A stretch of DNA of 64,000 bases from Candidatus Brocadiia bacterium (GCA_046538485.1 JBKHIT010000023.1:1-64000); one strand, 5' to 3'. Positions 26,295 to 64,000 are shown, counted from the first letter of the stretch. Program-made: numbers and translations. The notes: generated by a model not told the origin, from the letters alone.

Positions 26295-27104
26295 TCAATA
26301 AGATTTATCTGCCAGGGTCTTGAAGTGGTAGCTCCACCAGCCTTTGGTGCGCATGGTGGCGTCCTGCTCAGGGGTTATGGAAATCCACTTGGACATACCA
26401 TTTGCATATGTCGCATTGAATCCGTCATCACTGTGCACATGCAAGGTATTTCCCCAGCCCCAGTATGTCATGGGCAAAAGACAGATAACAATTGCCTGGG
26501 GGGTCTTAGGTTTCGTGATAACGTTTCCGGTGCCCGGGTGGACTAGCGGCGCACCTGCTATGTTGTTTGGGAACTTGGCGCCGAGTTGCCGATGATAATA
26601 ACTAACTCGTTCGCTCCAATCATATATTGGCGGACAATTTGCCCATGTTGGTGAGCGTGGGACGTAGCTTGCACGTGCCCATGCGTCGGGATCAAGGCCC
26701 TGTTCCATGCGTTTGAACTGTTCTCTGGCCGTCGGAAGCCAGCCCTCGTTCCAGGGACAGCCGGGATCGTAAAGGACATCCAATGCCGTATACTGGGGCA
26801 CCAGGTTGCCGAGATTCATTTTATCATCGTGCGTGAACGTAAACCCTGCCCAGTTGCTCCAGTTGTTTGCCACGATACTGTTGGTGTAATTCATCGAAGC
26901 TGGTGCGACGCTGTGTTCATTCCAGTCCTGAACGTAACCGTTGTAGGCGAGGAAAATCTGGTGGTGGTTGCCCAGGCACGCCGTAGCTACAGCTGCCGTG
27001 CGGGCCTTTTCCAACGCCGGCATGAGCATCGCAGCGAGAATTACAATAATCGCAATAACGACCAGAAGCTCGATAAGTGTGAAACCTGCTGAACGCGTTT
27101 GCAT
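26295..27104 (-). CDS. Prepilin-type N-terminal cleavage/methylation protein (DUF1559-like), copy 1
   Basis: [34 protein letters not shown]-terminal HSDDGFNATYANG; GGAGG upstream of ATG at 27104. Confidence 0.92.
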   Translation of the reverse strand: MQTRSAGFTLIELLVVIAIIVILAAMLMPALEKARTAAVATACLGNHHQIFLAYNGYVQDWNEHSVAPASMNYTNSIVANNWSNWAGFTFTHDDKMNLGNLVPQYTALDVLYDPGCPWNEGWLPTAREQFKRMEQGLDPDAWARASYVPRSPTWANCPPIYDWSERVSYYHRQLGAKFPNNIAGAPLVHPGTGNVITKPKTPQAIVICLLPMTYWGWGNTLHVHSDDGFNATYANGMSKWISITPEQDATMRTKGWWSYHFKTLADKSY

Positions 27105-27160
27105 TCGGCCTCCATAGAAGTTGAACTGTTTGTCGAATAGAATAATATCCGTACTCGATC

Positions 27161-28322
27161 CTAACTCTGGGGACGTGAAAAAGCAAATATAGCTTCGCAA
27201 AAACGCAACTTTGTCACTCGATGCACTCCTTTCGCCCAAATTGTGTTGAGGCGATATGTGACGTTAATCAGGGATACAGCCCCACAGTAGTGGATGTAGA
27301 TTCGACCGTGTATTAGTTTTTCTGGTTGTTTAAGGTCCGTTGGATGCCAGGGTTCTGACAGATATGGTTGGCCCTGGTGTGCTGACTGGTCCAGCACCAG
27401 ACCGTCGTCCCAATGAGCGAGTATGAAACTCGCTTCGGCCCCGGGCTGTAGCTCAGGCAATTCAATGCCGGCCAGCGCTGGTGGGGAACGGCTGCACAGA
27501 TCCCAGGCAGCATGGAATGAAAGGCCGCCCCGGGAGATGAGGAATTCGACGTTGCGATCAAGCTGAAACCAGGCGCCAGATAACAATTCACTATCGGCCA
27601 GATGCATGCGCCCGCTGGGTTCAATAACAAATTCTCGACCGCCCATGCAACTATAGTGGCCCGGCTCGCAGCCAGAAAACCCGCTGGCGTCACTTACCAT
27701 GAAACGACGCTGGCTCCGCGTTCTATGGCGGCACGTATCGTTTTGGCCTCGGGAGAAGCGTGACCAATGGCTGCGATCTTGCCATCCGCAACAGCAGCTG
27801 CCAAGAATTCGAGACCGCCGGGCTGTTCAGGCGGTACATTCACCATCCGGACTTGCCGACCGATTGCCTCATCGATTTGACGGACACAATCGTAGTCGGG
27901 AGTGCGTAACCAATCACGGTTATGGGCTCCGCGCCATCCATCTTCGGGCGAAACGAAGATACCTTCGTGGAATACGCCGGTGAACAGTGAGGCGAGGTCA
28001 GGTCGTTCGTCAAGCCACTGGCCCAGCTGGGCTGCACTTTGTAACAGGGGCTCTTCAGGATACGTTGTCAGCGTTATCAAACAGCGACCGACGCCGTGCC
28101 GGCGAAGGAGACCTGCAACGTTTTCGAGGTGCTCCACGGAAACGTCATGCAGTTCGTTGTAATAACGCCCCAGGGCACCGTTTTGCTGCAGATCGACGAG
28201 CACCGGCAAAATCCAGGGAAGCGCGTCATCGGTTCAATTTTACGTATGTGCTCGATGGTGCGACCGTCGACGGAGATCTCGAGGGCTGTACCGTCCGCCT
28301 GTCGTCCTCGATAATTTGACAT
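27161..28322 (-). pseudogene. nagA: Disrupted N-acetylglucosamine-6-phosphate deacetylase-like gene
   Basis: Three frames carry LVDLQQNG, FHEG..GAH, AIGH, VSDA and LSG. One-base frameshift at about 28231; frame-shifting internal deletion at about 27700. True 3' end uncertain. Confidence 0.8.
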
Positions 28323-28378: not shown

Positions 28379-28574
28379 CAAGTACTGTAGCCATAGTGAT
28401 ACAGACATTCAAGTATTAAAAGAGAGCTTGAATGCACTATTTGGGCTGTTAATCGAACCGTACGCCGCTTATTCATGCATAAGCGAGCGGATATTATATG
28501 TTTGTCCGCGGGTGTCCGCGGGCTGTAAAGGTTGTATAATTGTACCCATGTGATCTCACATGCGGGGAGAAGAG

Positions 28575-29708
28575 ATGTCCGGGAACAAAAAAAACGGCCG
28601 GCAAACCGAGCGTGTGGTGGACGGGGTTGAGCTGGGTATTCGCGAGGGCACGTTTGCACCGGGAACGCCGATACCGTCGTATCGTTCGCTCAGCGATCTG
28701 TACGATGTAAGTATCAATACGGTAAGACGCGCCATAGATATTCTGGTTGGGAAAGGCTTGTTGTACCGAAAAGAACGGAGCGGGACCTATGTTCGCGCGG
28801 AGCTTTCGACGGAAAATTCAAGCGATTCAAACGGTTTGAACTGCGTAACGGTGATTGAGAAACCCCAGCCGTTGTCTCGCGCCGGCTTCCAGCAGGCATA
28901 CATGGCGGGTTACACCGAGGCGATGGAGCACCTGGATATCAAGATGCGTTTCGAGGTCTGGCAAAAAAATCTTGATGATTTTGGAGTCCTGATTGCGGAT
29001 CGTTTTTCGGCGAAAGACCAGGGGTGCGTGTTGGTTAATTTTGTCGATAGAGATTTTATGCAATGGTTGGATCGAATGGACCTGCCTTTTGTCGTCCAAT
29101 ACTACTGTTATTATCCTACAGAGGAGTTGCCGCCGCATGATCGTGTTTACGTCAACAAGATGAAAGCTGGCTTTGAAGCCACGCAACATCTACTGGATAT
29201 TGGTCATCGACGGATTGGTTTCGCGGGACATTCCCGGGCGTCGGACAATCTACCGGGGCTGTACGACGGGTATCGTGCTGCCCTGCTGCGTGCAGGGACC
29301 GGACCACGTAGCGGGGATATTATGGAATTTTCTACTGACGAAGTCTCGGCTGCGCTTTCGCCTGTGCGGAAATTTTTGGGCCGAAATAATCTCCCAACAG
29401 CTGTGTTCTGCAAAACCGATGCCCTGGCCATTGCTTTTCTGAAAGTGGCACCCGAAGTGGGGATCCACGTGCCGGATGATTTAAGCGTGGTGGGGTTTAA
29501 CGACCTGCCGGCAGCAGCAAAGTCGGATCCGCCTCTGACAACCATAGCCAGTCCTCGCCGGTTCCTCGGGAAAACGGCGGTGGAATTATTATTCTCGTCA
29601 GCCTCAGAGGACAGGGATGGTCCACAAGAACGTGTTCTGGGTTGCCATCTTTTGTTGCGTGAGAGCACGGCTCCCGCGGATAAGGCTGCGAGTGGCGTTA
29701 TTTTGTGA
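28575..29708 (+). CDS. GntR wHTH + LacI-type sugar-binding-domain regulator
   Basis: IPSYRSL..VSINTVRRAI..SGTYV; GHRRIG; VPDDLSVVGFND; PPLTTI. Confidence 0.93.
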   Translation: MSGNKKNGRQTERVVDGVELGIREGTFAPGTPIPSYRSLSDLYDVSINTVRRAIDILVGKGLLYRKERSGTYVRAELSTENSSDSNGLNCVTVIEKPQPLSRAGFQQAYMAGYTEAMEHLDIKMRFEVWQKNLDDFGVLIADRFSAKDQGCVLVNFVDRDFMQWLDRMDLPFVVQYYCYYPTEELPPHDRVYVNKMKAGFEATQHLLDIGHRRIGFAGHSRASDNLPGLYDGYRAALLRAGTGPRSGDIMEFSTDEVSAALSPVRKFLGRNNLPTAVFCKTDALAIAFLKVAPEVGIHVPDDLSVVGFNDLPAAAKSDPPLTTIASPRRFLGKTAVELLFSSASEDRDGPQERVLGCHLLLRESTAPADKAASGVIL

Positions 29709-29746
29709 ACTAAAACAAAACTATAGGACAAGTAAAGGAGAAATGG

Positions 29747-30012
29747 ATGCGTAAGAGAGCGCTGGGAAGAATACTCGAATTGCGTTCCATAGAATGGGCT
29801 TATGAAACTACCAGAAAAAAGAAAAGGTATGAAAACCACGGTTTCACGCTCATTGAGCTGCTGGTTGTAATCGCTATCATTGCCATTTTGGCCGCGATGT
29901 CGTCGCCGGGCATGTCGCCTATTCGCCCGAATACGATTGGCTGCATGCCAAATTCTGGGGTCGTAAGGCGGATGGGTCCTATATCTCAGGTTATTACGTG
30001 TATGAACCTTGA
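29747..30012 (+). pseudogene. Prepilin-type gene, copy 2, with its central domain deleted
   Basis: [20 protein letters not shown] ends at 29899; another frame then reads VVAGHVAYSPEYDWLHAKFWGRKADGSYISGYYVYEP* (stop at 30010-30012). Confidence 0.8.
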
Positions 30013-30102
30013 TTGAAAAGTAATTTTCGGATCGCTAAGCGGCCCAAGAATTTGTTTCCTTCAGCGCAGGAGCTTGGCCAAATTAGGATTACGAGTAATC
30101 AC

Positions 30103-32742
30103 ATGATTGGCAGTTTTTTCGCGGATAGAGCGCTCGCGATTCTTGTAGCCTACTTGATTCTGCTTGTCACGATTATCCCTGCTGGAGCGTTCGATCTCGT
30201 CCGCGACGGGGAACCTCGGGCGAAGATCTACGTCGATACGCAGGGAACGCAAAAGAAAACAGCCGATATCCTCCGAAATGCATCAGGTTGGTTGAAGGAA
30301 GCTGTCAGAAAAGCCACCGGCGCTGAGCTGATTGTTGTGGACAAAGAACCAGCGGGGGCATCGATCGTTCTGGCGCGTTCCGTTCGGTATCCTGATATTG
30401 CCCGGCAAGCAAAACTGCAAAAAGATAATATCGATGCTTTTGCGGTGGTGACCGGGGACAATCGCGCCTACATCCTCGGCCAGAGCGAACTTGCGGTACG
30501 GCACGGCGTTGCCACACTCCTGCACGGGTGGGGTTTCCGCTATTTTAACCCGTCTCCTCGATGGTGGATCACGCCGAAACGTGACGATCTGGCCATCAAG
30601 GAAACGTTCGCTGAAGCCCCGGGGATGCGCGGGCGGCGGATATGGTATGCCTATGGGGTACGACATCGAAAATTGAAGGAGCGCTACAATCGATGGGCCG
30701 CGGCCAATCGACTCGGCTCCGCAGCCGGCTTCAGCACGGGACATAGCTACGGGAATATCGTCGGACGAAATAGAAAAGAATTTGAAAACCATCCCGAGTA
30801 TTTGAACATGCTCGAGAACGGAGAACGTTACAAATTGAAGCGGGGGGGGCGTTTCAGCGGTAAGTTCTGCTACTCCAATCCAGACCTCGTAAAACTGGTC
30901 GTTGCCGACCGCATCAAAAAACTCGAGCAGAGACGAAAGAACAACCCCTACGCATTTATGGTTTCAGTGGATCCCTCAGACGGAGGAGGAACCTGTCACT
31001 GTGAGGATTGTAAGGCGCTTGGAAGCTCAACTGACCGCGTAATTTACCTGGCCAATCAGGTCGCAAGGGGATTGCGTAAGAAACATCCGGGAGCCTGGGT
31101 GGGTCTGTATGCCTACGCGTCACACCGCCTGCCCCCGACCATTGAGGTGGAGCCGAACGTCTACGTGCAGGTGGCGATGGCTTTTAACAGAACCCGCTAC
31201 AGCCTGCCGGAACTGGTCAGCAAGTGGGCCGAGAAAGTGTCTATGCTGGGATTGCGGGAATATTACGGCGTTGAACACTGGGATTGGGGTCTGCCAGGCC
31301 GGATTCGAGGCGCGTCCGTCGCCTACCAAAAGAAATGGATCCCTTACTATTACAAGCGGAATGTGAATGCCATTAATGCCGAGAGCAATGCCAACTGGGG
31401 CGGCCAGACGCTCGGGTTTCTGGTGGCCGCGCACTTGATGTGGGATCCCCACGCGGATGTCGCGGCGATTCTGGACGATTACTACCAGAAAGCCTTCGGG
31501 AAAGCGGCCGGTCACATGCGGAAACTTCAGACGAAGTTCGATCAGAGACCGTCATTTCGGCTGTCCAAAATGCTGAAATTGTTCGAACCCCTGGAAGCAG
31601 CTTATCAGACGGCCGAACCCCCCGATGTTCGCAAACGCATCGTCGATATGATGGCATATTTGCACTACGTTTTGCTCTACAGGGATTACAGCGTGGAGGC
31701 ATCCCGAAGCGATAAAGACGCCGAATACGCGGCTCTCAACACGTTGATGCAGTACGCATGGCAGACGCGTCTGCGAGGAATGGTTCATTATTACGCGCTT
31801 GCAAGGCGTTTGTGCAATGCCAAACCAATTCGGGACGGCCGTTTTGAGTTCCACATGTACGGGCATGGGGAAGGAAAGAAAAAACCGCCGGTCTGGAAAG
31901 TCGGGGGAAAACAGCGTGACGAAGACATTAAGGAACTGTTTGGAGCCCGTACCATTAAGGGAGAACTTGAAGACGAAGATATCATACGCCTTTTCCGCTC
32001 CGACCTGCGGCGGCTTGAGAAAGCTCCTGATCCGTATAAGACGTACTCGTCTCGACTTGAACGGGTAACTGTCCCTGTCACACGGGGCACCGATCCTGGC
32101 AGAGGAGGAAGCGGGGATTTTCAGAGCCGCGCCGGGCCAGTTCACGCTGTGCTGGTTGCGGATCAGCGCCAGACCATACGGTTCAAAATCCAGAGTTTGT
32201 CCGGTAGTACAACCATCCGGATTCTCGGCGAGGACGAGCGGGCGATTCTGGAAAAGAAAATCGATAAGAGTGATACGGGAAAGATCGAACTCGAGCTGCC
32301 AGAAGCCGGCAGCTATCCCGTCCGAATCAAGGGCGCGTTTCGCCTGCATGTGCCGCGCGAAACACCTCTGATGTTCAGCGCGTCCTATAAAAATCCTGTG
32401 TGGATCAACTACAGTGGCCCGCATTATTTTTACGTGCCGAAGGGGACCGAACAGATCATTTTTAATGGCACTCCACGGCTGAGCCTGATTGTGCCGGGGA
32501 AGGGACGACGCGATTTCTCATCGGCGGACCGTGCGAAAGGCAAAAATTACGTCGCCCTGGATGTCCCCGAAGGTGCCGATGGACGCGTCTGGCGGACGAT
32601 GAATCAGACACGCGGAAACGTGCGGCTTATCAATATCCCCCCGTACATGAGTTTCTATCCCGACCGAATTGTCGTGCCAAAAGAGATTGCTGAGAAAGAT
32701 AATGTGAAGCTCGGATGGAGCGACTTTGAGGAAGAAAGGTAG
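30103..32742 (+). CDS. Secreted DUF4838-like protein (putative glycoside hydrolase)
   Basis: Signal peptide ending AGA-FDLV; GFRYF.P; GHSY..HPEY; FCYSNP; DGGGTCHCEDC; LYAY; LMWDP. Confidence 0.8.
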   Translation: MIGSFFADRALAILVAYLILLVTIIPAGAFDLVRDGEPRAKIYVDTQGTQKKTADILRNASGWLKEAVRKATGAELIVVDKEPAGASIVLARSVRYPDIARQAKLQKDNIDAFAVVTGDNRAYILGQSELAVRHGVATLLHGWGFRYFNPSPRWWITPKRDDLAIKETFAEAPGMRGRRIWYAYGVRHRKLKERYNRWAAANRLGSAAGFSTGHSYGNIVGRNRKEFENHPEYLNMLENGERYKLKRGGRFSGKFCYSNPDLVKLVVADRIKKLEQRRKNNPYAFMVSVDPSDGGGTCHCEDCKALGSSTDRVIYLANQVARGLRKKHPGAWVGLYAYASHRLPPTIEVEPNVYVQVAMAFNRTRYSLPELVSKWAEKVSMLGLREYYGVEHWDWGLPGRIRGASVAYQKKWIPYYYKRNVNAINAESNANWGGQTLGFLVAAHLMWDPHADVAAILDDYYQKAFGKAAGHMRKLQTKFDQRPSFRLSKMLKLFEPLEAAYQTAEPPDVRKRIVDMMAYLHYVLLYRDYSVEASRSDKDAEYAALNTLMQYAWQTRLRGMVHYYALARRLCNAKPIRDGRFEFHMYGHGEGKKKPPVWKVGGKQRDEDIKELFGARTIKGELEDEDIIRLFRSDLRRLEKAPDPYKTYSSRLERVTVPVTRGTDPGRGGSGDFQSRAGPVHAVLVADQRQTIRFKIQSLSGSTTIRILGEDERAILEKKIDKSDTGKIELELPEAGSYPVRIKGAFRLHVPRETPLMFSASYKNPVWINYSGPHYFYVPKGTEQIIFNGTPRLSLIVPGKGRRDFSSADRAKGKNYVALDVPEGADGRVWRTMNQTRGNVRLINIPPYMSFYPDRIVVPKEIAEKDNVKLGWSDFEEER

Positions 32743-32745: not shown

Positions 32746-35160
32746 ATGTTTGGTAAATACCCTGGCGCAGTGGTGTTGTTTTTGTTCGTGGCATTTTTGG
32801 ATGCGGGGAGACTGATGGCGAGGGAGAGCAAACTGACGATCCCGGCAAAAGATTTTGTCGGAGGCTGCCACTCAACTTTTTACAAGGGAAACGATGCGAA
32901 ATACGGTGAAGGGTATTCGTATCGGGGCGCGCGCAAGGTGTCCATTTTTTCACGGGGCGTGGAAGGCAATTCCATAACCGCTCGATTCACGCTGAAGGGG
33001 ACCCCGCTGGGAGAATCCGCACTGAAAATTGTGGGGCTGGATGATGGAAAGAAGGGAAATGTTCCCATCCGTGTGATTCTGAATGGCAAGATCGTTCACG
33101 AAGGCGAGACTGTTTTCAAGGATAGCCCGCATATCTATACGCCACGAGGTTGGACGCCCCAGACCATCAAATTACGGCGGGAAGTTTTTGTCGAAGGCAA
33201 AAACAAGCTCACAATCGAGAATATGGATGATGGTCACGAGGACTCGCTCCGCTGGATGTTCGTCCACCAGGCAGAAGCTGTCTTTCCGGAGGGCGGCGTG
33301 AAAGGAAAAGTTGAGCGGGGTGAGGATTTCATGGGCCGACAATATCTTCAAGGATTGGTGGAGCCGATTGTTTACCCGGCGGCTCTCAAGCATAACACGA
33401 TCCACCTCATAGAAGACCGCTTCTTGCAGCAAGGGTTTACGGCGATGGCAGTGGGCAAATACAACGGCCGCAAGGTCAGGGCGGTCATCGAAATCTCTCG
33501 AAGTGTGGAGGCGCTGGTGGTTCGGGGGCAGGAACTGAACCGCGAAAATATCGTCCGCGACAAGGTCCCGTATCAGCGGTTGACCGTGGCGTTCAAACTG
33601 AAGACTATGTCGGGGCGCCGGATCCATTACTACGGTTATCCGCTTCTGGCCCTGAAACCTGATAAATCCGGTCGGTTGCCCGATGCGCACGTTCACATGG
33701 AAGTGGATGGAGATCCTCATCCTGAAAAGACGTTCGGTATCAAGGCCTGGCCGATTCACCGGGACCACAAGCGACCGGAGAATTTCAGTCTCGGAGTGTG
33801 GGGAGCGTCACGACCGAAGGACAAACGGGTGGCCGCGGATTACGGCGAGTTGCTGAGAGAAAACGGTTTCGCGCTGGTTTTCGGGACCACCAACAGAGGG
33901 GAGGCGAATTTTTTCCACGAACATGACATAAAATACTATACTCGTTTCGGCCCACATCATCCCAGCGAGAAACATCCCACCGTCAAATGGGATGGAAGCA
34001 CAAATCCCCGAGAAGCAGATCCGCTTTATCTGATCTACGGCGAAGATGCCATGCAACTCCCCACATTCCAGCGTGCCATACAAGCGGCCGAAAAAGACTG
34101 GCTGGACGGGGTCTGCTGCGATTACGAACTGATGGCGGATTCCTGGAGTGACCGATCGATTCGCGAATTCAAGAAATTTATTAAGCCGAAGAAACCGCGT
34201 TTAGCCCAATACAGCAAAGAGAAATTGCGGGAGTTGGCCACCGATCCCGAGACCGGGCAGTACTCCCCGTTCCCTGAATGGCAGGATTACCGCCGGTGGC
34301 TCAATGCGAGAATTGTGGGCCGTATGCAGGACGAGATACATAAGATCCGCCCTGATATGCCCTATTTAAGTCTCGCCTCGGCGAGTGATATGCCCTGTTA
34401 CTGGTGGAACGCGAGCGGAAGAGGGCGGTTCCGGTTGGAAGATCTTGTGAGAGAAGTGGATCAGGTCGCCTGCTCCGTCTACCACTACGACAACCCGGGT
34501 GGTTTGCCTTCGATCCCGGAGATTGTCAGGACGGCCCACCGGTTTTCCGAAGGCCAGGATGTGGAGATACACCTGATCGGGATTTTCGCCGGAACGCTCA
34601 TTGAACTCTATCGCTACGATAAGGTGCATCTGCCGGCGTGGGCGATGCGACTCGATATTGTGCTGGCCGGCGCAGAGGGCGGAAATGCCTTCCACTTTTT
34701 CCGGGGTGACCAGCTCGACGGGGAATATTTTTCAGCGGCTTCGCGGGCCCTGCATGAACTCGCTGTTCTGGAGCCTCTGTTGATGAAAGGGAAGCCGGCT
34801 GATGAGCGGGTGAGGATCTCTTTTCCGAAGAAACCTGACTATACCCTGGCGCGAAGTTCGAACCACACCTTCGGCAGCAAATTATTGTGGGCTGGAAGTT
34901 TGGATAAACAAAGGAAAGCGATGCTTCGCGTTCTGCCGGACGGACGGTTGCTGCTTTTGCTGTTCAACTTCATGGATGTCCCTGCTGATATGAAAGTCAT
35001 GATTCAGGGCGCACTGCCGGCCAAAAGATATGAGCTGAAGACGCTCCTGGCGGGAGAGGAGTCGGGTCCATCGGTGGTTTCTCCGGCCGAGGGATTCGTG
35101 CAAAATGTATCATCTCGCGACCTGAGCGCGTTACTTTTGAACCCCACAGACGGCGATTGA
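32746..35160 (+). CDS. Secreted hypothetical protein: N-terminal beta-sandwich (CBM-like) + putative TIM-barrel GH-like domain
   Basis: Signal peptide; VILNGK..GKNKLTIEN; DGVCCDYE; WQDYR. Confidence 0.7.
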   Translation: MFGKYPGAVVLFLFVAFLDAGRLMARESKLTIPAKDFVGGCHSTFYKGNDAKYGEGYSYRGARKVSIFSRGVEGNSITARFTLKGTPLGESALKIVGLDDGKKGNVPIRVILNGKIVHEGETVFKDSPHIYTPRGWTPQTIKLRREVFVEGKNKLTIENMDDGHEDSLRWMFVHQAEAVFPEGGVKGKVERGEDFMGRQYLQGLVEPIVYPAALKHNTIHLIEDRFLQQGFTAMAVGKYNGRKVRAVIEISRSVEALVVRGQELNRENIVRDKVPYQRLTVAFKLKTMSGRRIHYYGYPLLALKPDKSGRLPDAHVHMEVDGDPHPEKTFGIKAWPIHRDHKRPENFSLGVWGASRPKDKRVAADYGELLRENGFALVFGTTNRGEANFFHEHDIKYYTRFGPHHPSEKHPTVKWDGSTNPREADPLYLIYGEDAMQLPTFQRAIQAAEKDWLDGVCCDYELMADSWSDRSIREFKKFIKPKKPRLAQYSKEKLRELATDPETGQYSPFPEWQDYRRWLNARIVGRMQDEIHKIRPDMPYLSLASASDMPCYWWNASGRGRFRLEDLVREVDQVACSVYHYDNPGGLPSIPEIVRTAHRFSEGQDVEIHLIGIFAGTLIELYRYDKVHLPAWAMRLDIVLAGAEGGNAFHFFRGDQLDGEYFSAASRALHELAVLEPLLMKGKPADERVRISFPKKPDYTLARSSNHTFGSKLLWAGSLDKQRKAMLRVLPDGRLLLLLFNFMDVPADMKVMIQGALPAKRYELKTLLAGEESGPSVVSPAEGFVQNVSSRDLSALLLNPTDGD

Positions 35161-35273
35161 TATTCTGAAGTTGTTTTTGGAGATGAGATTGAGTTGATCT
35201 GACCCGTGAGGAAATCGCCTGGCCTTAGCGCAGAAGTTGGTATGTGCTTAGCCTGTAAAATTCCGTTTCGTAG

Positions 35274-35370
35274 GTCATTGCGAGCCCATCGCGAGATGGG
35301 CGAAGCAATCTCGTCGTTTTGTCAGCCCAACAGCGAGATTGCCGCGGCGGCGATGCCGCCTCGCAATGAC
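35274..35370. repeat. 97-bp palindromic REP/MITE-like element
   Basis: Terminal inverted repeats GTCATTGCGAG/CTCGCAATGAC; internal GCAATCTCG/CGAGATTGC, GCCCATC/GATGGGC and GGCGGC/GCCGCC stems. Confidence 0.85.
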
Positions 35371-35471
35371 ACGTCAGCCTGAATAATTGGTCGCAACGCA
35401 CGCTAAAGGCCATTAGATTGAAATCTTCTTCTAGGATGCGACCTGATTCTGCGTCCTGTTCTGGAGGTTGT

Positions 35472-36284
35472 ATGATGGATATTTTTGCCAAAACGAGAAA
35501 ATTATGCAGTGCATTTACGCTTATCGAATTGCTTGTCGTTATCGCGATTATCGCTATACTGGCAGCAATGCTGATGCCGGCGCTGCAGAGGGCGCGCGAG
35601 AGCGCTCGCCGAACTGCGTGTGCAAATTATCTGAGGCAGTGGGGACTCGCCCTGGAGATGTATGCCAATGATTACGATGGTTGGATGCCGTCAAAAAACG
35701 GCGGTGGCAGCGATTACATGGTCCGCAACGGAATACGAGTCGAAGGTATCCCGGCCTTGAAAAGTTACGGTGTGACAAACGATATTATCGTCTGTCCCAA
35801 TGTCCCCGATGGAGACGGATGGGCCAAAAAGGGTTATTACCAGGATCATTGGGACAACGAATCCAATACCGTCTGCATCGGTTACATGTATTACGCGGGG
35901 GTTGGAAACGACTCCCGTGGCCAGAGCCGTAACGAGCCCTACGGGTGGTACTACTGGGCCATGCACAGTTCTCCCCGGCGGCATGTCCCGACGGTGAATA
36001 AACGTTTCAAGGAGTACGTAAACTGGTACGGACAACACCTGCCGGCTCGTCCGTCCCGGGACGGCGTGATGATGGATGTGTTTTACGAGGGACTTACGTA
36101 CAGGGGACATACCAGGCACGATGGTGCCACGTACTGCCCCAATCCCTATGGCATGGCTCACGAATACGCGATGGAATCGACCGCGGGGGGAAACGTATTG
36201 TATGCCGACAGTCACATAGAGTGGGTGATTCCAGGACCGGATACGTTGCGCAAAGAGGCCAGTCAGTACGTGATGTACTACTGA
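35472..36284 (+). CDS. Prepilin-type N-terminal cleavage/methylation protein (DUF1559-like), copy 3
   Basis: [70 protein letters not shown]. Confidence 0.93.
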
Positions 36285-38341: not shown

Positions 38342-38504
38342 AATGCACCTGCAGACATTCGACCAAATCGGGTTCTGAAGTGGTAACCGAAATGTGGTAA
38401 AGTAACTGGGGATTCCGGTAGAACGGAATCCCGATGCTGAAAAGTTGACTCTGGCGCTTTGTGTGGTCTTTTGCGGACATAATTTTTTGGAGATAGGTAT
38501 TACA

Positions 38505-45874: not shown

Positions 45875-45967
45875 GACTACCTGGAAGGGGGTATGCCAAT
45901 GCCAATGATATTTAAAATGGCAGGCACCTCTGCCCAACGAATCCCCCACCGGGGGCGCCGCTTTGTT
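45875..45967. repeat. ~90-bp dispersed direct repeat, copy 1
   Basis: GACTA.CTGGAAGGGGG.ATGCCAATGCCA..GATATTT.AAAATGGCAGGCAC..CTGCCC shared with 54329-54423. Confidence 0.85.
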
Positions 45968-46569: not shown

Positions 46570-46680
46570 CGCCACCCCTGCGGGGTTTGGAAATTATGTG
46601 GGGTTCTGAATTCCCGGGGCTTGCCCGAAAAACGGGCGCGCCCCGGGTTATGTCTGCCGTCGCCCCTTTTCAGGGGCTCA
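46570..46680. repeat. REP/BIME-like palindrome cluster
   Basis: ACCCCTGCGGGGT, CCCGGGGC..GCCCCGGG and GCCCCTTTTCAGGGGC hairpins. Confidence 0.7.
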
Positions 46681-46744
46681 AAGCAACATGAGAGTGGAAA
46701 ACGTGAGACCTCCCCGCCGCGAGAGCGGGGTATTCTCTTCTCTC

Positions 46745-46892
46745 GGAAATGGAGAATCGAGTTCAGCTGAGTCCGCCATGGCGGAGGAAGCGGGACTTGA
46801 GGCGCACGAATTTGGAAAATGGCAACTCGGACGAAACTGCCCGCGTTCTGAACTCCAGCCCCGCGGGAGCGGTTCTGAAGTCCAGTCCGCTC
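46745..46892. repeat. REP-like composite repeat (units A-B), second copy
   Basis: Aligns by eye with 45272-45420. Confidence 0.85.
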
Positions 46893-46930
46893 CAGGTGAT
46901 GTTGCCTCGCAATGATATGTCAGCTTCCTG

Positions 46931-46959
46931 TTGTCCAAAATGCACTGAAATGTTAAGGT
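46931..46959 (+). promoter_or_regulatory. Sigma70-type promoter for the GH78 block
   Basis: TTGTCC-N17-TAAGGT with extended -10 TG. Confidence 0.5.
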
Positions 46960-47002
46960 TTTCCCTCACTCCTGTCCGAGTTATGAAAGTTACAAGAAAA
47001 AA

Positions 47003-49147: not shown

Positions 49148-49182
49148 ACCCATGCGCAGCCTCAGCTGCAAAAGGAACCCAA

Positions 49183-50400: not shown

Positions 50401-50514
50401 TGCGTCGTTTCTCCGACTGACGAAACTTGAATGCGAAGGTGCGCTCGCGTCAGCAAAATAAGATGCGGCACGCCTTTTCCTACGCTACGCAATTGCAGGA
50501 AGGATTGATACGTC

Positions 50515-52578: not shown

Positions 52579-52709
52579 GTGAGTGCCTGATCGTGTCTCA
52601 GGCCGAACGGAATCTTTCTGACGCAACGTTTCGTGCTGCTGTCAACGGAAAGGAAACGTTAACAGCCAGAATGCAGATCAATTTTCATTAGATATCCCAG
52701 GGAGACGAG

Positions 52710-54194
52710 ATGTCACAACCGGATATACTTTTCGTTTTTTCTGACCAGCATAACGCCCATTATTGTGGATTTGACGGACATGAGGTCGTCAATACCCCTA
52801 ATTTGGACCGCATTGCGGCTCGGGGAACGGTTTTCGATGCCGCCTATACGGCCTGCCCGCTGTGTGTGCCCGGGCGATCGGCTATGCTGACCGGGCAGTT
52901 GCCGTCCCATACCGGTATTTATACCAACGGTGGAATCATTCCCAGTGGCCAGGCCACGTTTTTGCATTCCCTCTCGGGGCGGGGTTACGAAACGGTGTTG
53001 TGCGGGCGGATGCATTTCAAGGGCCCCGACCAGCGACATGGGTTCACAAAGAGAATTATGGGGGATATCACGATGTTGGGGAACGGACGTTTTGGTGAGT
53101 GGAAAAAGACACTGGGAGTATACGGACAAGGAAGTATCAGGCTCGGAATGGGGGGCTGTGTGGACATTATGGGAGGTGGCAATTCTCCTGTACTGGAATA
53201 CGACCGGGCCGTGATAGAGGCTGCTCTCAGGTATCTGGAGCAGGAACATGAAAAACCGCAGTGTATCGTTGTGGGGACGTACGGACCGCACTTTCCTTAT
53301 GTCGCACCGCCCGAACTGTATCGGCGATATTGCGACCAGGTGGGAGTCCCCGGTAGCTGGAGGGACGAGGGTGATACGGACCATCCCATGACGGAACAGA
53401 AAAAGCAGCGAACGCGCACTGACCCGGAAACGGGGGAGAAAGTGCCCGTCACGGAGGACGATGTCCTGGCCGCTCGCGCCGCTTATTTTGGTACGATCAC
53501 TCAGCTCGACCGACAGATCGGGGAGATCCGCGATATGTGGGGTTCATATCTGGAACGAAATGGCCGGGCGGGCATATTCATCTATAGCTCCGATCACGGC
53601 GATACATGCGGTGAGCACGGCATATTCGGTAAACAAACCTTCTTCGAAGGATCAGCTGCCATTCCACTGGTTTTCGAGGGTGCTGGTGTACCGGAAAACC
53701 GGGAAGTCAGCTCCCCGGCCAGCATTATGGATATCGGACTGACTCTGTGTGATATTACCGATGCCACACCTCCACCGGCTCAGAATGGAACGAGTCTGTC
53801 CCCGTGCTTCCGGGACAATGACGCGCAGAAGGACCGCCACGTTCTGAGTGAATGGATCCAGTCGCGGGGCGATCAACTCGCTCCGGGTCGAATGGTGCGC
53901 CGTGGGCGGTGGAAATACGTCTCGTTCGCGCATTCGGATTGCAACGGACTGTTGTTTGACGTTATCGCGGACCCGGAGGAAGTCTGTGACGTATCGGAAG
54001 AACATCCGGATCTCGTCGAGGAACTCACCGTTCTGCTCAAAGAAAATTGGGACGTGAGCCATATTGTTCAGAGACACAAAGAACGAAATGAACAACGGTC
54101 TGTGATAGGCCACGCGCCGTCCAATCCATTGATTCCGTGGGATGAACAGTGGACTGTCCCGGAATGTGCTCGAAATCTTCCGGAAGTGCGATAA
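52710..54194 (+). CDS. Formylglycine-dependent (S1) sulfatase
   Basis: SDQH, CVPGRSAMLTG (CxPxR), GRMH, PHFPY, SDHG. Confidence 0.93.
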   Translation: MSQPDILFVFSDQHNAHYCGFDGHEVVNTPNLDRIAARGTVFDAAYTACPLCVPGRSAMLTGQLPSHTGIYTNGGIIPSGQATFLHSLSGRGYETVLCGRMHFKGPDQRHGFTKRIMGDITMLGNGRFGEWKKTLGVYGQGSIRLGMGGCVDIMGGGNSPVLEYDRAVIEAALRYLEQEHEKPQCIVVGTYGPHFPYVAPPELYRRYCDQVGVPGSWRDEGDTDHPMTEQKKQRTRTDPETGEKVPVTEDDVLAARAAYFGTITQLDRQIGEIRDMWGSYLERNGRAGIFIYSSDHGDTCGEHGIFGKQTFFEGSAAIPLVFEGAGVPENREVSSPASIMDIGLTLCDITDATPPPAQNGTSLSPCFRDNDAQKDRHVLSEWIQSRGDQLAPGRMVRRGRWKYVSFAHSDCNGLLFDVIADPEEVCDVSEEHPDLVEELTVLLKENWDVSHIVQRHKERNEQRSVIGHAPSNPLIPWDEQWTVPECARNLPEVR

Positions 54195-54328: not shown

Positions 54329-54455
54329 GACTATCTGGAAGGGGGGATGCCAATGCCAGGGATATTTCAAAATGGCAGGCACGTCTGCCCCCACCGAATC
54401 CTCAACGGGGGGCACCGTTTTGTGGTGGACCTTCAGCCCTCTGCATCCCGGGCTG
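54329..54455. repeat. ~90-bp dispersed direct repeat, copy 2, fused to a motif also seen at 45447
   Basis: Matches 45875-45967, then TGTGGTGGACCTTCAGCCC, which also occurs at 45447-45465. Confidence 0.85.
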
Positions 54456-54898: not shown

Positions 54899-54927
54899 TT
54901 GACGCTTCTTTGTGAGCGTTATATAAT
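54899..54927 (+). promoter_or_regulatory. Sigma70-type promoter for the third GntR regulator
   Basis: TTGACG-N17-TATAAT. Confidence 0.7.
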
Positions 54928-54953: not shown

Positions 54954-56093
54954 TTGAACGTGCCGGTCAATCAGATACAGCACCGGAGTCTGAAGGAATA
55001 TATCCATGCGGATCTTGTGCAACAAATAACGCGCGGAGATTACAATCCCGGCGATCGACTCCCTTCTATGAGCACTCTGGCAGAGGAGTATGGAACGAGT
55101 GTTAACCCGGTGCAGGAAGCATATATTCGCCTCGCCCAGGAGGGGTATGTGGAGAAACGGCCCGGTTCGGGGACCTACGTGATAGATTCCTCTGCACCCG
55201 CGGCGATGTCCGATACCGTGGTTCTGGCAATGCGGCCGGAAGGACACGTGTGGGGGAGGCTCTCGCGTCTGCTTTCCCACAGGCTCCACGACGATCTCCT
55301 CATGCCCGTTCACGTGAATCCGAATAGCGAAAATTCAAACGCCGTTCTGCGCAGCCTGGCCCGTTCAGAGGCCCGTGCGTTTCTGGTGCTGGGGTCTGCC
55401 CATCAGCCCCTTCACATTTTTCACCAACCGCCCTTCTGTTCCCGGGTGATTGTGGGACTCGTCGAGTGGGTTGGCCCGGCCTTCCCCGGGCTTTTGCGTG
55501 TTCTGGGCGACTATCGTCACGGGGGCGAGCTGATGGCCGAGCATCTGCGCGAGCGCGGGCACCGGAAGGTGCTGATGGTTGCCGCGCCCATGCAGGCCGG
55601 GAAGATGGTGGACGTTATGAACGGAGGAACCGGTCCGCATGGCCGGGGGATTGACCAGAATGATCACGGGGTGGCGTTTCTCAGCCGCTGGAAGGAGGCC
55701 GGAGCGGGATGGGACGTGATGGCAACGGATGTTGGAATGGAATCTCGGGATGGAATGGTCCGGCTGAACGAGGACGAATTTCTTTCGCATTTTAAGGGAT
55801 CCGATATTCCCACGGCAGTGTTCGGATGGAGGGACGTGGATGCGGCGGCGGCGCAGAAGGTGCTCCGAGAGAGGCGTCCCGAATTGCTGGAGGATGTGGA
55901 AATAACCGGGTTTTTCAATACCCCCTGGAGCCGCGGGGCCCATCCGCCGTTTTCCTCCGTAGATCTGAACATCGAATCGATAGTGGGTGAGGCCTGCAGG
56001 ATGGTGGAGAAAAGACTGGCCGGGGACGAGGTTGAACCCGATATCAGGTGGATTAAACCACGGCTCGTCGTGAGACCGGAGAAAAATTCGTGA
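54954..56093 (+). CDS. GntR wHTH + periplasmic-binding-protein-like regulator, paralogue of 43874-44953
   Basis: LPSMSTLAEEYGTS..GSGTYV; GFFNTPWS..PPFSSVDLN. Confidence 0.92.
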   Translation: MNVPVNQIQHRSLKEYIHADLVQQITRGDYNPGDRLPSMSTLAEEYGTSVNPVQEAYIRLAQEGYVEKRPGSGTYVIDSSAPAAMSDTVVLAMRPEGHVWGRLSRLLSHRLHDDLLMPVHVNPNSENSNAVLRSLARSEARAFLVLGSAHQPLHIFHQPPFCSRVIVGLVEWVGPAFPGLLRVLGDYRHGGELMAEHLRERGHRKVLMVAAPMQAGKMVDVMNGGTGPHGRGIDQNDHGVAFLSRWKEAGAGWDVMATDVGMESRDGMVRLNEDEFLSHFKGSDIPTAVFGWRDVDAAAAQKVLRERRPELLEDVEITGFFNTPWSRGAHPPFSSVDLNIESIVGEACRMVEKRLAGDEVEPDIRWIKPRLVVRPEKNS

Positions 56094-59677: not shown

Positions 59678-59679
59678 CA

Positions 59680-59816: not shown

Positions 59817-60746
59817 ATGTTTGGAAGAGTCTCGGAAACCGAACGCCGGTTACAGGATAGCAGCGCCCGAGCGCCCCTACATGGTTTCACCCTGATAGAA
59901 CTACTGGTGGTCATCGCCATCATCGCAATTTTGGCCGCCATGTTGTTGCCCGCGTTGGAGTCGGCACGAGAAAGGGCCTCGCGTATTGTATGTATGTCGA
60001 ATCTGCGGCAACGTGGTGTGGCCTATCATATGTATGCGGTGGACTCTGCCGGGCTGCTTCCGCATTGTCAGCCGGACAGAATACAGAACGCGGAGAGAAT
60101 CGCTGTCCCACTGGAGTCCGAGCTGCGCAGCACTTTGTACAGTTATACCGATGGAAACCTTCAGGTCTGGTGGTGCCCGCAGGCCTGGGGCCGAGACTCG
60201 GTATCCCAGCAGAAAACGTGGTCGGGGGATGTGATGAGCAAACCGCAGAAAATCACCTCCCAGGGCGGTGGATTCATACGCACTGTCCCGCACTGGGTGC
60301 ACCACGTTGACAAGCTGAGCGTCGACTGGTCGATCCGCTGGCTGTTCGAAGATCCGTCGTACCTGATTTCCGGTGAACGGTCAACAGAGGGTAGGCTCGG
60401 CTGGGGGAACAGCGCTGGTAAAGGCGGAAATAAGGAACACCCGGCGCCCAAGCTTGCGGGCGCACCGGGGAAGGCGATCTTGCTTGCCGAAACCTACCCG
60501 ACCCCCGGCGCCACACCAGGAATCCTGCCGTCCCACAGCGCGTGGTGGTTTGGCTGGCGACCGCGGCATAAGGGAGGAAGCGTGTTATTCGACGGCGGTA
60601 ATGTTCTGCGCGCCGATGCGTCGGCGGCATGGATTCAGGTCGTAGATCAGTACTACACTGGCCCTGGCGACAGATGGCCGAGCGTCTCCCACTGGCTGTG
60701 GTACTGGAATAACAAAGGTATCTATATGGTCGCGGACGGTCATTAA
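59817..60746 (+). CDS. Prepilin-type N-terminal cleavage/methylation protein (DUF1559-like), copy 4
   Basis: [61 protein letters not shown]. Confidence 0.93.
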
Positions 60747-60889: not shown

Positions 60890-63800
60890 ATGCAAAAAGG
60901 TTTGCGTTTGCTCTGCAGTATGGTCGCCGTCCTGTCAGTCGCGGTACAAACGCTCTCGGCAATGGGGGGGGAAAACCCGGATATCGCGCTTGCGGCCAAG
61001 ATCGCCTACTACCCCAGTTATAACACGTTGGAGTTGCGAACCGGTGAAATTCTCTTCCGCACCGAGGACGGCAAAGCGGGGTTGCAGGCACAATATTTCG
61101 ATAACCCAAACTTGGAAGGGAACCCTGTGCTGACGCGGGTCGACCGGAACCTGAATTTCAATTGGGAGCAGGGTTCTCCAGGGCAAAACATCCCTGAGGA
61201 CGGTTTTTCCGTGCGCTGGACCGGGCGGCTGGCTGAAGCCCCCAGAACCGATATTTACGAGTGGGACGTGTCCCACGACGACGGCATGCGCCTCTGGATT
61301 GACGGTGAAAAAGTGGTAGATGCATGGGGCGGCCCGGGACGTCATACCGAGCGTACCCAGGTGGAAAGGGGAACACGGCCGCATATCAAAATTGAATACC
61401 GCGAGACCGGCGGCGACGCGCGGGCGCGGGTTTCTGTCCGCCCTCTTGGCGCCGTGACCGAACAACTGTTTCATACACCCGATGGCGAGCCCGGCGTGCG
61501 TGCAGAGTACTTCGGCAACCCAGACCTCGAGGGTGAGCCGGTCGCGAGCAGAAACGTGTCGCGTATCCACCATCATGATTATCGGGTTCCGGGCACAGGC
61601 ACAGATACCTGGAGCATCCGCTGGACCGGGACATTGGGTCCGGCCCCGACCTCAGGCACATATATGTTTGAGGCCCGTCACCAGGACGGGGCGCGGGTTT
61701 TCATAGACGACGTGCTTGTCTTCGAAGACTGGAGCACAGGGAAAGATACGGACCTCGCGCGTTTTGAAATGCACGAGGGCGAGGTCGTCGACTTTCGTAT
61801 CGAGATGAATCAGGTGCCGCATGGGCCCGTCACCATGAATGTCCTGCCGCGAATAGCACTTGCTGATGCGTACAAGAAGGCGGAAGCCACGCTTACCCTC
61901 GTTGACGGCGACGGTGAGACCGTTCAGAAGAAAGCGTTTCAGCTTGAACGGTTCGGGGATCGGCGGTTCGTTGAAATTGAGCCGTTGAAACCCGGACGCT
62001 ACGAAGTGCGGCTCAGTGCCGGCCTGAATACGGTTAACAAAACAGTCGTGCACCGGGATTTTAATTGGGAGGACAACAAGTTAGGCATCACCGATAAGAT
62101 CTACCCGCCGTTTAAGCCAATCGAAGTGAGCGACGGCCCCGTCGTGAACGTCGTACTGAGACGATACCATTTGAATGAACTGGGCCTGCCCGCGCAGATC
62201 GAAGCTCGGGGCCAGGATAAGGACAGTGTGTACAAAGAACTGCTGGCCGGCCCGATTCAGTTGATTGCCAACGGCGAGGCCGTGACACGCGGCGAGGGGG
62301 AGTTTGTGAAAATGGACGAGCGCGAAGTCGTGTACGAAGGCCGCGCCGCCCACCCGGCGGTCAACATAACGACACGCACGACCACCGAGTTCGACGGGTG
62401 TATGAAAGTGGAGTTGACCCTCGATCCGGGGGGCAAGGCTGCGGAACCGACTGCGACCGACACCAAGCGACAGCAGTCGACCGTTCTGGAATCCCTGGTT
62501 CTGGAGGTTCCCTTAAAGAACGAGATGGCTCCGCTGTTCCACGTCGTCAAGGGGTCCCCGCCGATCAGGCAGAACACGGCGGGTGCCACACCGCGTGGCG
62601 ATGGACAGATCTGGGATTCGACGAAGCTCCGCTGCAAGAAATGGCCCGGCAATTTCAAGCCCTACATCTGGCTCGGCGGACCGGCGCGCGGTCTGTCCTG
62701 GTTTGCGGACAATGAAAAAGGCTGGGTGATGGACTGGAAGAACACCCCCCCGTGCCAGACATTGCATCGGAAGGACGCTACACTGACGCTGCGCATCCAC
62801 CTGGTTCAGCGGCCCGTGCAGTTGCGTGAGGCGCGCACAATTACTTTCGGACTCATGGCCAGCCCCGCCAAACCGATGCCCGAAGGGTGGCGCCGCCTCG
62901 CACGCCCGGACGCCAAGGGCATCAGGTTCAAGATGGGGCAGCTTTTCGGGCTCGACGCCATCTTTGCCGCGAAATATCCACGGGGCAAAGACTTTTCGCC
63001 CTTCGAAAAATTCTATGCGGCGCGGCTGGGAGAGGATATCGACCTCCGCGAGTTCGTGAACGACTGGGCCGACAAACACCTGCATGACGGCATGAGTGAC
63101 AATCTGAAAAGGCGCTATCGGAGCCTGATGCGCAACATAATGCGTACTGGCAGGAAGCTTGGGCCGGACACATATTTCACGGCTTACTTCGAGGAATTCC
63201 GTGCTACAACCACCTGGCACGAGGACCATAAAGTGTACTGGTGCGAATGGAACCGGCTGTTCCAGCAGCAGAGGGAGCGACTTTTTACAGATTGGAAAGA
63301 CTGGCCAGTTAAAAAACAGCATCTCCGCTGGTTCACAGGCACCGGCGCCATCGTGCCCAGCTACCGTGACTTCGCCTGCTATTTTGCGGCGAAATGGCTG
63401 GAGAACGGGGTGGGTATTTATTTTGACAATGCGTTCCCGGAGACAGCCTATAACACGATCAACACGTCTGCTTTCGTGCGTGAGGACGGCTCCATTCAAC
63501 CCTCATGCGGCATCTGGGCGCGCCGTGCGTATCTCCGCCGTATTTGGAATCTGCATCAGGAACTGTACCGGCCGGAAACGCCCCAGATCATGATGCTCCA
63601 CATGACCAATACGCATATTCTACCGTACATGGTCTGGAACCAGTCGAATCTCGACCTGGAGTGGAAGCTGCCGGGGGTGGCGCCGTTACAGAAGAAGTTC
63701 TCTCCGGAGCTGCTCCGGGCCGAATCCATCGGACTGCAGACCGGAAATATCCCGCTTGCCATGGTGAAACCCGGTAAAAAGCGTAAGCCTGCGAAAGGTA

Positions 63801-64000
63801 TGTCGAAGGAAAAGTTCGAAAACATCCACGAGACCTATCGCTACGGATTGTACCTGCATGAAATCAAGTACGCCCCCAATATTTCCGCCTCTTCGCCGCC
63901 GGAGCCCATGATTGACTTCGGCTACGGGTTGGATGACTGCGAAGTAATCAACTACTGGGACGACAGCGCGTCATTGAAGATCAGCGACCCGGACTGCAAA
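60890..64000 (+). CDS. Secreted DUF6067-like protein with two PA14 domains; partial, runs off the window and is absent from the ORF track
   Basis: Own translation: MQKGLRLLCSMVAVLSVAVQTLSA; GLQAQYFDN..FSVRWTG..DDGMRLWIDG; GVRAEYFGN..WSIRWTG..QDGARVFIDD; PYIWLGG..GLSWFADNE; ends DPDCK in frame (1037 codons). Confidence 0.9.
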   Translation, partial: MQKGLRLLCSMVAVLSVAVQTLSAMGGENPDIALAAKIAYYPSYNTLELRTGEILFRTEDGKAGLQAQYFDNPNLEGNPVLTRVDRNLNFNWEQGSPGQNIPEDGFSVRWTGRLAEAPRTDIYEWDVSHDDGMRLWIDGEKVVDAWGGPGRHTERTQVERGTRPHIKIEYRETGGDARARVSVRPLGAVTEQLFHTPDGEPGVRAEYFGNPDLEGEPVASRNVSRIHHHDYRVPGTGTDTWSIRWTGTLGPAPTSGTYMFEARHQDGARVFIDDVLVFEDWSTGKDTDLARFEMHEGEVVDFRIEMNQVPHGPVTMNVLPRIALADAYKKAEATLTLVDGDGETVQKKAFQLERFGDRRFVEIEPLKPGRYEVRLSAGLNTVNKTVVHRDFNWEDNKLGITDKIYPPFKPIEVSDGPVVNVVLRRYHLNELGLPAQIEARGQDKDSVYKELLAGPIQLIANGEAVTRGEGEFVKMDEREVVYEGRAAHPAVNITTRTTTEFDGCMKVELTLDPGGKAAEPTATDTKRQQSTVLESLVLEVPLKNEMAPLFHVVKGSPPIRQNTAGATPRGDGQIWDSTKLRCKKWPGNFKPYIWLGGPARGLSWFADNEKGWVMDWKNTPPCQTLHRKDATLTLRIHLVQRPVQLREARTITFGLMASPAKPMPEGWRRLARPDAKGIRFKMGQLFGLDAIFAAKYPRGKDFSPFEKFYAARLGEDIDLREFVNDWADKHLHDGMSDNLKRRYRSLMRNIMRTGRKLGPDTYFTAYFEEFRATTTWHEDHKVYWCEWNRLFQQQRERLFTDWKDWPVKKQHLRWFTGTGAIVPSYRDFACYFAAKWLENGVGIYFDNAFPETAYNTINTSAFVREDGSIQPSCGIWARRAYLRRIWNLHQELYRPETPQIMMLHMTNTHILPYMVWNQSNLDLEWKLPGVAPLQKKFSPELLRAESIGLQTGNIPLAMVKPGKKRKPAKGMSKEKFENIHETYRYGLYLHEIKYAPNISASSPPEPMIDFGYGLDDCEVINYWDDSASLKISDPDCK

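Follow-up and report, generated by a model that had tools for sequence, protein, structure and literature searches.

Why should genes for type IV pilin-like proteins lie inside operons for the breakdown of glycans? The question is raised by a stretch of 64,000 nucleotides of Candidatus Brocadiia bacterium (hereafter the window), which represents positions 1-64000 of contig C57 in the metagenome-assembled genome (MAG) G000 (5.19 Mb in 143 contigs, 88.3% complete, 4% contamination). A preliminary description of the window had listed four prepilin-type genes among three regulators with GntR and sugar-binding domains and five giant proteins with signal peptides, had recognised two same-strand units, and had found no gene for SusC/D, TonB or ABC proteins among them. 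Profile searches (Pfam and NCBIfam) of 23 open reading frames (ORFs) between 22 and 64 kb bear out this inventory (Table 1). All four prepilin-type genes match N_methyl (E 1e-7 to 2.9e-10), exceed the TIGR02532 cut-off and possess a class III signal peptide with an FTLIE-type motif; three are intact and the fourth, at 29747, is a truncated remnant. The three regulators combine an N-terminal GntR winged helix with a C-terminal Peripla_BP_3 domain, both over the Pfam cut-offs, each of the five giants has a hydrophobic N-terminal stretch that resembles a signal peptide (judged by eye), and matches to SusC/D, TonB receptors or ABC proteins are absent from the 23 ORFs. The domains ascribed to the giants were recovered as well (CBM9, PA14, DUF4838 and, for the DUF6067-like ones, PF19543 or GH123_N, a model that we take to be the former DUF6067), with the exception of the 'GH-like' label of the 804-amino-acid (aa) protein, which has no Pfam match. 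The pairing of regulator and pilin stands for the regulators at 28560 and 54954 and fails for the one at 43874, which has no adjoining pilin.

The window is best explained as holding sugar-regulated glycan-degradation operons with a built-in pilin of the DUF1559 type, typically placed right after the regulator and ahead of Sec-exported giants. Proteins of this type rank among the largest paralogue families of the Planctomycetota (PMC10632474, PMC8567305), and the parts of these papers and of PMC2754498 that deal with the family already report its expansion and the lack of an assigned function. The published descriptions, in those parts, mention flanking genes with signal peptides, and not sugar regulators, operons of carbohydrate-active enzymes (CAZymes) or riboswitches. 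Our own search of the literature, which left supplementary tables outside its scope, found no description linking these pilins to any of the three, and look-ups of terms in parts of PMC13526803, PMC6388578 and PMC10880615 found no pilin-CAZyme operon. Planctomycetal CAZyme clusters were called functionally uncharacterised in a 2024 survey (PMC11131199), and for the uptake of dextran and polysaccharides the components are described as unknown in the relevant part of a review from 2025 (PMC12673574). Here members of the family are tied to sugar regulators and exported glycan giants, and one further member, at another place in the genome, to an operon with a B12 riboswitch and without BtuB. Two open questions, the function of the family and the route of polysaccharide uptake, become testable with named genes and predicted ligands.

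Pilins and sugar regulators across the genome

A six-frame motif scan of the genome yielded 130 prepilin-motif ORFs (the residue before FTLIE being G in 77 and A in 53), of which 107 are among the 3537 genes of a crude gene call. A pilin is the immediate neighbour of 12 of the 29 GntR/LacI-type sugar regulators, compared with a mean of 1.7 and a maximum of 7 in 1000 permutations, and lies at most two genes away from 17 of them (mean 3.2, maximum 9, again in 1000 permutations). Because this count of 17 compares with a permutation maximum of 9, the arrangement seen in the two units of the window is above chance. Since two further regulators adjoin pilin ORFs that the gene caller had missed, 17 of 29 is a lower bound. 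Moreover, the pilin is located directly downstream on the same strand in 11 of the 13 direct adjacencies.

The same tendency manifests itself in the composition of the transcription units, defined here as genes on one strand with gaps of up to 200 bp. Pilins occur in 90 such units, 53 with several genes and 37 with the pilin alone. We compared 112 partner proteins from the multi-gene units (109 scanned and three window proteins) with 100 random genes outside pilin units, assigning categories by eye from Pfam names. Sugar regulators account for 18 of the 112 partners and for none of the random genes (p 6e-6), proteins of at least 540 aa without a Pfam match for 25 as against 6 (p 8e-4), and glycan-active or glycan-binding domains for 21 as against 7-8 (p 0.014-0.03). 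Prepilin genes are thus enriched genome-wide beside sugar regulators and exported or glycan-active proteins, in favour of the preliminary description, which had proposed such a test for CAZymes and GntR/LacI regulators, and we regard with high confidence the genomic association of pilins with sugar regulators and glycan operons as real.

Further evidence comes from a paralogous cassette of unit 2 (G000:C66:39417-58563), which comprises a regulator, a pilin, a 151-aa fragment and four GH123_N-like giants of 945-1655 aa. Identity to the window unit is 34% for the regulator, 36% for the pilin and 63% for the giant; the enzymes are therefore accompanied by pilin and regulator, both of which diverge faster. 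The gene order is not the same, as the C66 pilin directly follows its regulator, unlike that of window unit 2. In other genera, a pilin lies within 1.5 kb at three of eight regulator loci, and a search for the regulator in 60 other genomes of the phylum at E<=1e-20, too strict a threshold, returned nothing outside G000.

The window pilins belong to the expanded DUF1559-type (SBP_bac_10, H-X9-DG) prepilin-like family of PVC (Planctomycetes-Verrucomicrobia-Chlamydiae) bacteria, with which they share the prepilin leader, a nearly identical alpha-1, a length of 250-350 aa and the huge copy number. For the 35472 pilin, about 14 homologues span the full length (41-97% identity), and beyond them come more than 7800 family matches with PF07963 and PF07596; its homologues are labelled DUF1559 or H-X9-DG proteins by the source records, and their alignment keeps a GGNxLYxDGHVxW-like consensus. 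The heads of the window pilins differ from the described family, matching PF07596 over the first ~46 positions or not at all: this gene (35418-36284) scores 33.2 bits (cut-off 23.3) on profile positions 1-46 of 268 only, and the 26295 and 59817 pilins have no PF07596 match at E<=0.01. In the whole genome PF07596 matches 71 places, mostly with just the first ~50 profile positions, and TIGR04294 (H-X9-DG, cut-off 19 bits) 15, none of them a window pilin. Throughout the family the N-termini are nearly identical, with a conserved Glu at +5 and a near-invariant start of alpha-1, features that pilins use in filament packing. The heads are hypervariable; a paralogue match of any kind was found for 55 of 104 heads in the genome, at 23-42% identity, and none at E<1e-3 for the head of the 26295 pilin.

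The structure model of the 35472 pilin (residues encoded by 35472-36284; pLDDT 86.4) has a helix at residues 17-67 and a C-terminal sheet. Pilins or pseudopilins occupy 15 of the 16 top rows in VIA, with Z of just 3.1-5.5 (3.2-5.5 for the best matches, type IV pilins and pseudopilins), and chains of the competence pilin ComP occur among the structural matches (Z 4.3 and 2.6). Sequence similarity to solved pilins is confined to the N-terminal helix, and Foldseek found no match to the model in the PDB at E<=1e-3. For the 59817 head, Atlas structure neighbours are N_methyl/DUF1559 clusters at TM ~0.5, obtained with a poor model and as leads below 0.9.

The mat-dwelling host is most likely a PVC bacterium of the Planctomycetota. 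Among named records, the 804-aa protein comes closest to those of Planctomycetes and Phycisphaeraceae MAGs and the GH123_N giant at 56249 to those of Lentisphaerales, Victivallales and Planctomycetaceae MAGs, and three complete genomes of the same phylum (G043, G108, G132) possess dozens of full-length DUF1559 proteins. Within its own GTDB family G000 is an outlier: its 71 PF07596 matches and ~130 motif ORFs compare with 0-7 PF07596 matches in 16 other genomes, which points to lineage-specific expansion or gene acquisition. Comparable expansions were seen in three genomes from two other families of the class.

A candidate import filament and its competitors

What could a pilin contribute to such an operon? 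An indication is provided by a family member outside glycan metabolism. At G000:C78:1133-1320 lies a cobalamin riboswitch (RF00174, 98.1 bits, E 2.7e-24), which opens an operon (1133-5540, locus L097) with genes for a DUF1559/H-X9-DG pilin-like protein, directly after the riboswitch, and then for a BtuF-like protein (Peripla_BP_2), an ABC ATPase (ABC_tran) and FecCD. The pilin-like protein has the N-terminus of the family and a true H-x9-DG motif. BtuB is not encoded with this operon, and the genome as a whole yields no match to BtuB or Plug. As the operon is devoid of an exported enzyme, it favours a role in import over one in the export of enzymes. In the window itself, the four enzymes of the operon at 47003-54194 have no hydrophobic leaders at their N-termini, and some oligosaccharide must therefore reach the cytoplasm, where they would trim imported, possibly sulfated, oligosaccharides.

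The machinery for a filament, which the preliminary description had assumed to lie elsewhere in the genome, is indeed encoded there. It includes a PilD-type peptidase on contig C20 (A24_N_bact 111.2 bits, Peptidase_A24 54.1 bits), three PilT/PilU-family ATPases above the curated cut-off, two PilB-like ATPases slightly under the equivalog cut-off, PilC/GspF-like platform proteins, and GspD/PilQ-like secretins under their curated cut-offs; the genome profile search gave 10 T2SSE matches over the cut-off, along with 12 matches to T2SSF and three to secretin. These loci are located on contigs other than that of the window and have short pilins of their own, the one on C109 being a pilus locus. Genes for an assembly ATPase, a platform protein or a secretin are absent from the window, and a classical type II secretion operon was rejected as a description of it for that reason.

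TonB-dependent outer-membrane receptors, by contrast, were not found: TonB_dep_Rec (PF00593), Plug (PF07715) and SusD (PF07980) have no match in the 88.3%-complete genome. A polysaccharide-utilisation locus (PUL) of the Bacteroidota type was rejected because SusC/SusD were found neither among the window ORFs nor in this genome. ABC-permease matches number only 10, compared with ~130 pilins. Across related genomes, pilins and Plug tend to exclude each other, in a comparison in which pilin-rich means at least four PF07596 matches (a threshold chosen post hoc), the counts are lower bounds and the genomes are related. Plug is absent from 11 of 14 pilin-rich and 4 of 27 remaining genomes in a sample of the class (41 genomes), from 6 of 7 pilin-rich and 2 of 10 pilin-poor genomes in the window's own family, and from 13 of 23 pilin-rich and 14 of 78 other genomes in a sample of the phylum (101 genomes, p 8e-4), where the five genomes at the top of the PF07596 counting range all lack Plug.

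These observations can be assembled into a mechanism, several steps of which are conjectural. A sugar signal would de-repress the operon, and the PilD-type peptidase would cleave the pilin-like protein, as its motif and the presence of the enzyme suggest. The cleaved pilin could then become a minor subunit, specific for its operon, of a shared retractile type IV filament; its hypervariable head might bind the substrate of the operon, and retraction might bring the substrate through the outer membrane, by analogy with the uptake of DNA by competence pili. Such a pilin-loaded filament, by importing substrates, would therefore do the job of the TonB-dependent SusC/SusD or BtuB elsewhere. We put forward only tentatively that the pilins are operon- or ligand-specific subunits of a shared retractile filament that substitutes for these receptors. 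An extension to the Planctomycetota and allied PVC bacteria at large is doubtful: there, one filament with more than 100 interchangeable, substrate-induced pilins, each for a glycan or a cofactor including B12, would provide TonB-independent import, replace SusC/SusD as well as BtuB, and explain dextran-binding fibres and 'whole-polymer uptake'.

Several observations weigh against a filament of this kind. Single-gene units make up 37 of the 90 pilin units, and 28 of the 112 partners look like housekeeping or other unrelated genes. The link is partial: a pilin lies no more than 500 bp away from only 6 of 19 DUF4838 and 4 of 24 GH123_N-like genes (background 8.5%), and in two further MAGs (L001, L002) the orthologue of the 56249 giant has no adjoining pilin. 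Similar pilin heads go together with homologous neighbours in 3 of 22 pairs, a weak result against a background of 5.7%. Neither a lectin nor a binding fold is among the matches to the modelled head of the 35472 pilin, which are to pilins alone and do not exceed Z 5.5. The incompleteness of the genome (88.3%) is a caveat on every genome-wide absence, and the comparison of pilins with Plug is burdened by its post hoc threshold, minimum counts and related genomes and by exceptions such as G007, with 7 matches for the pilin and 11 for Plug, and G016, with 8 and 9. The earlier suggestion that the pilin fills the SusC/SusD slot is therefore upheld in part: the lack of TonB, Plug and SusD matches, the riboswitch operon without BtuB and the Plug-poor, pilin-rich relatives speak for it, while the link to glycan genes is incomplete.

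An unlikely but serious alternative turns the direction of transport around, with the pilin as a cargo adaptor, that is a pseudopilin which brings the giant enzymes of its operon to a common type II secretion machine or keeps them attached to the cell surface. Giant proteins with signal-peptide-like N-termini are indeed enriched among the partners, at 40% as against 19.5% (by a crude rule), the gene directly 3' of the pilin encodes at least 700 aa in 23 of 78 cases (background 12%), and the C66 cassette shows a joint duplication of pilin and giant. GspG is the profile that the pilin N-termini match best, under the cut-off, GspD-, GspE- and GspF-like genes occur in the genome, and the pullulanase secreton of Klebsiella is likewise sugar-regulated and adjoins its cargo gene. 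An adaptor for enzymes, however, is hard to reconcile with the riboswitch-controlled B12 operon, where a family member occurs without any exported enzyme, with the majority of DUF4838/GH123_N giants that have no pilin nearby (among them the orthologous giants in L001 and L002), and with three PilT/PilU retraction ATPases, which are not known to belong to classical type II secretion. That pilin-rich genomes tend to be Plug-free also points to import.

Quite unlikely, in our estimate, is that the proteins act outside any filament, as membrane-anchored binding or scaffold proteins whose class III signal peptide is only an anchor and which pass substrates to inner-membrane transporters or organise enzymes. 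The Pfam family name SBP_bac_10 suggests such a role, one member (C78) adjoins an ABC importer, and in Tuwongella 25 of 91 proteins with N_methyl and SBP_bac_10 were detected in detergent-soluble membrane fractions, according to the relevant part of PMC8567305. Archaeal sugar-binding proteins with class III signal peptides, as portrayed in parts of PMC3047682, are a further parallel. In this so-called bindosome of Sulfolobus, pilin-type signal peptides occur on nutrient-uptake proteins with a dedicated type IV-like assembly system (Bas); these are, however, archaeal binding proteins of adjoining ABC transporters, whereas the window cassettes lack ABC genes, which are present at one other locus, C78. 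The B12 operon, moreover, already possesses a BtuF-like binding protein of its own, the 10 ABC-permease matches of the genome face ~130 pilins, and the conserved Glu at +5 and near-invariant alpha-1 serve filament packing in pilins.

Least probable is the absence of any functional link, with a large mobile paralogue family that came to lie beside inducible operons through duplication and hitch-hiking: single-gene units, unrelated housekeeping partners, the dispersed repeats that flank cassettes, the decayed copy in the window and the description of the Tuwongella family as 'evenly spread around the genome' (in a part of PMC8567305) would fit this, but no permutation comes near the observed enrichment next to regulators, 11 of the 13 adjacencies agree in order and strand, one member is under riboswitch control, and the arrangement recurs in other genera.

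A substrate-importing filament would have parallels in known systems. The PULs of Bacteroidota are likewise substrate-regulated and combine a sensor with exported glycan proteins and, in each locus, a single envelope component that is not an enzyme; that component is SusC/SusD there and a type IV pilin-like protein here, and regulation is by hybrid two-component or extracytoplasmic function (ECF) regulators there and by a cytoplasmic protein with GntR and periplasmic-binding-protein domains here. In competence type IV pili, a minor pilin (ComP in Neisseria) binds the ligand, and DNA is taken up through a secretin and by retraction with PilT. Retraction ATPases and secretins are common to both systems, and a specialised head that binds cargo is what we propose here; the proposed cargo, however, is a glycan or cofactor, the alternative pilins number more than 100 instead of one, and they are encoded in catabolic operons and not with the pilus genes. 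Finally, gold-labelled dextran binds to pili-like fibres from crateriform structures in Planctopirus limnophila and Gemmata obscuriglobus, and the polysaccharide is then internalised, as described in parts of Boedeker et al. 2017 (PMC5394234). The first of these two species possesses 68 DUF1559 paralogues (PMC10632474). The phylum is presumably the same, but those fibres were seen without a gene being assigned, whereas here there are genes alone. If uptake by way of such pilins proved true, it would represent a second general solution to outer-membrane nutrient transport and would change the prediction of glycan-utilisation loci in PVC genomes.

Genes, repeats and linkage within the window

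Table 1. Features of the window discussed in the text, with probable start codons where these differ from the ORF boundaries.
Feature	Position	Strand	Evidence
Prepilin-type gene, DUF1559-like, intact	26295-27239, probable start 27104	-	N_methyl E 1e-7; TIGR02532 25.6 bits (cut-off 16.3)
Unit 1 regulator	28560-29708	+	Peripla_BP_3 E 2.4e-31 (LacI-type sugar-binding); GntR E 1.5e-15
Truncated prepilin remnant, 89 aa (58 aa past the cleavage site)	29747-30016	+	N_methyl E 2.9e-10
Exported DUF4838 protein, 909 aa	30013-32742	+	PF16126 E 2e-35; hydrophobic N-terminus
Exported 804-aa protein	32746-35160	+	No Pfam or NCBIfam match
Prepilin-type gene, DUF1559-like, intact, last gene of unit 1	35418-36284, probable start 35472	+	N_methyl E 1.5e-7; PF07596
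Exported 1275-aa protein	38445-42272	+	CBM9_1 and FlgD_ig; weak SGL match
Pyruvyl-transferase-like gene, directly after the 1275-aa protein	42269-43453		
Second GntR/Peripla_BP_3 regulator	43874-44953	-	Passes both Pfam cut-offs; 40% identical to the 54954 regulator
Four-enzyme operon: GH78 rhamnosidase, BNR sialidase-like, melibiase/GH31-like, sulfatase	47003-54194	+	Pfam
Unit 2 regulator, GntR and Peripla_BP_3	54954-56093	+	Pfam
Exported GH123_N-like giant, 1142 aa	56249-59677	+	PF19543 (GH123_N) E 1.9e-16
Prepilin-type gene between two giants, intact	59817-60746	+	N_methyl E 4.3e-8; GspG-like N-terminus 36.1 bits, under cut-off
Exported giant, PA14 and GH123_N-like	60845-64219 (past the window end at 64000)	+	

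In unit 1, the usual slot directly 3' of the regulator is occupied by the pilin remnant, in which the family frame is lost past AILAAM; the sequence at 29716-30145 is identical in a contig from a second run of the same study (X2, depth 2.1). The DUF4838 protein has paralogues in the genome that combine DUF4838 with GH67N or GH2_N domains. For the 804-aa protein just four homologues were found; of the resulting family of five, three have a weak match to PF14683, a PL4 CBM-like domain (best E 9.6e-6). The protein was not found in 400 other genomes of the phylum that were searched, an Atlas search with it gave only leads below 0.9, and sequence searches of the PDB with this and the 909-aa giant returned nothing useful. 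The 26295 pilin is divergent and lies upstream of unit 1.

Unit 2 continues beyond the window (locus L057) with heparinase II/III-like, GH31-like and GH29 fucosidase genes. Orthologues of its first giant occur in three MAGs at 60-65% identity. A promoter-like site at 54899-54927, 5' of the regulator, matches at 11 of 12 positions; this is weak evidence, as the counts of the promoter and terminator scan did not exceed those in shuffled sequence. Rfam families at the gathering score and tRNAs are absent from the window.

The position of the 35472 pilin within unit 1 deserves comment. Directly 5' of it lies a dispersed intergenic repeat (35230-35420), with 72 BLAST matches in the genome, and the public contigs of run X1 end inside it, at 35302 and 35341, where read depth is piled up. 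It is therefore the MAG assembly that links this pilin to the remainder of unit 1. Some support comes from a near relative, in which the homologues of the 804-aa protein (91%) and of the pilin (97%) both list a contig of 5154 bp.

Dispersed repeats unrelated to this one make up the ORF-free 2 kb (44953-47003) that separate the GH78 operon from the regulator at 43874, and occur also at 54329-54426. One unit of ~150 nucleotides is present at 178 loci on 73 contigs, 175 of them intergenic and several exactly at cassette borders. At 45 of the 178 loci a pilin or regulator gene is no more than 5 kb away (random mean 31), a difference confounded by the intergenic bias of repeats.

Gene fragments occur on both sides of unit 1. 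Between the 26295 pilin and the regulator lie two adjacent ORFs with nagA fragments (within 27161-28209), of which 27694-28209 corresponds to profile positions 56-214 of 380, and downstream a 105-aa ORF within 36483-36800 matches an internal piece of raffinose synthase. Together with the truncated 29747 pilin, these fragments suggest gene decay around the unit.

Just 5' of the pilin region (22219-25764), a gene for a 732-aa protein with DUF6785 and DUF6784, which might be a membrane transporter of imported sugars, is followed by a URO-D-like gene; such genes recur in a further pilin unit (L044) and, beside a rhamnosidase, in a random locus (L066). Finally, two genes for group II intron reverse transcriptases/maturases were encountered among the random control genes (L065, 1-1275, and L074, 2792-4111).

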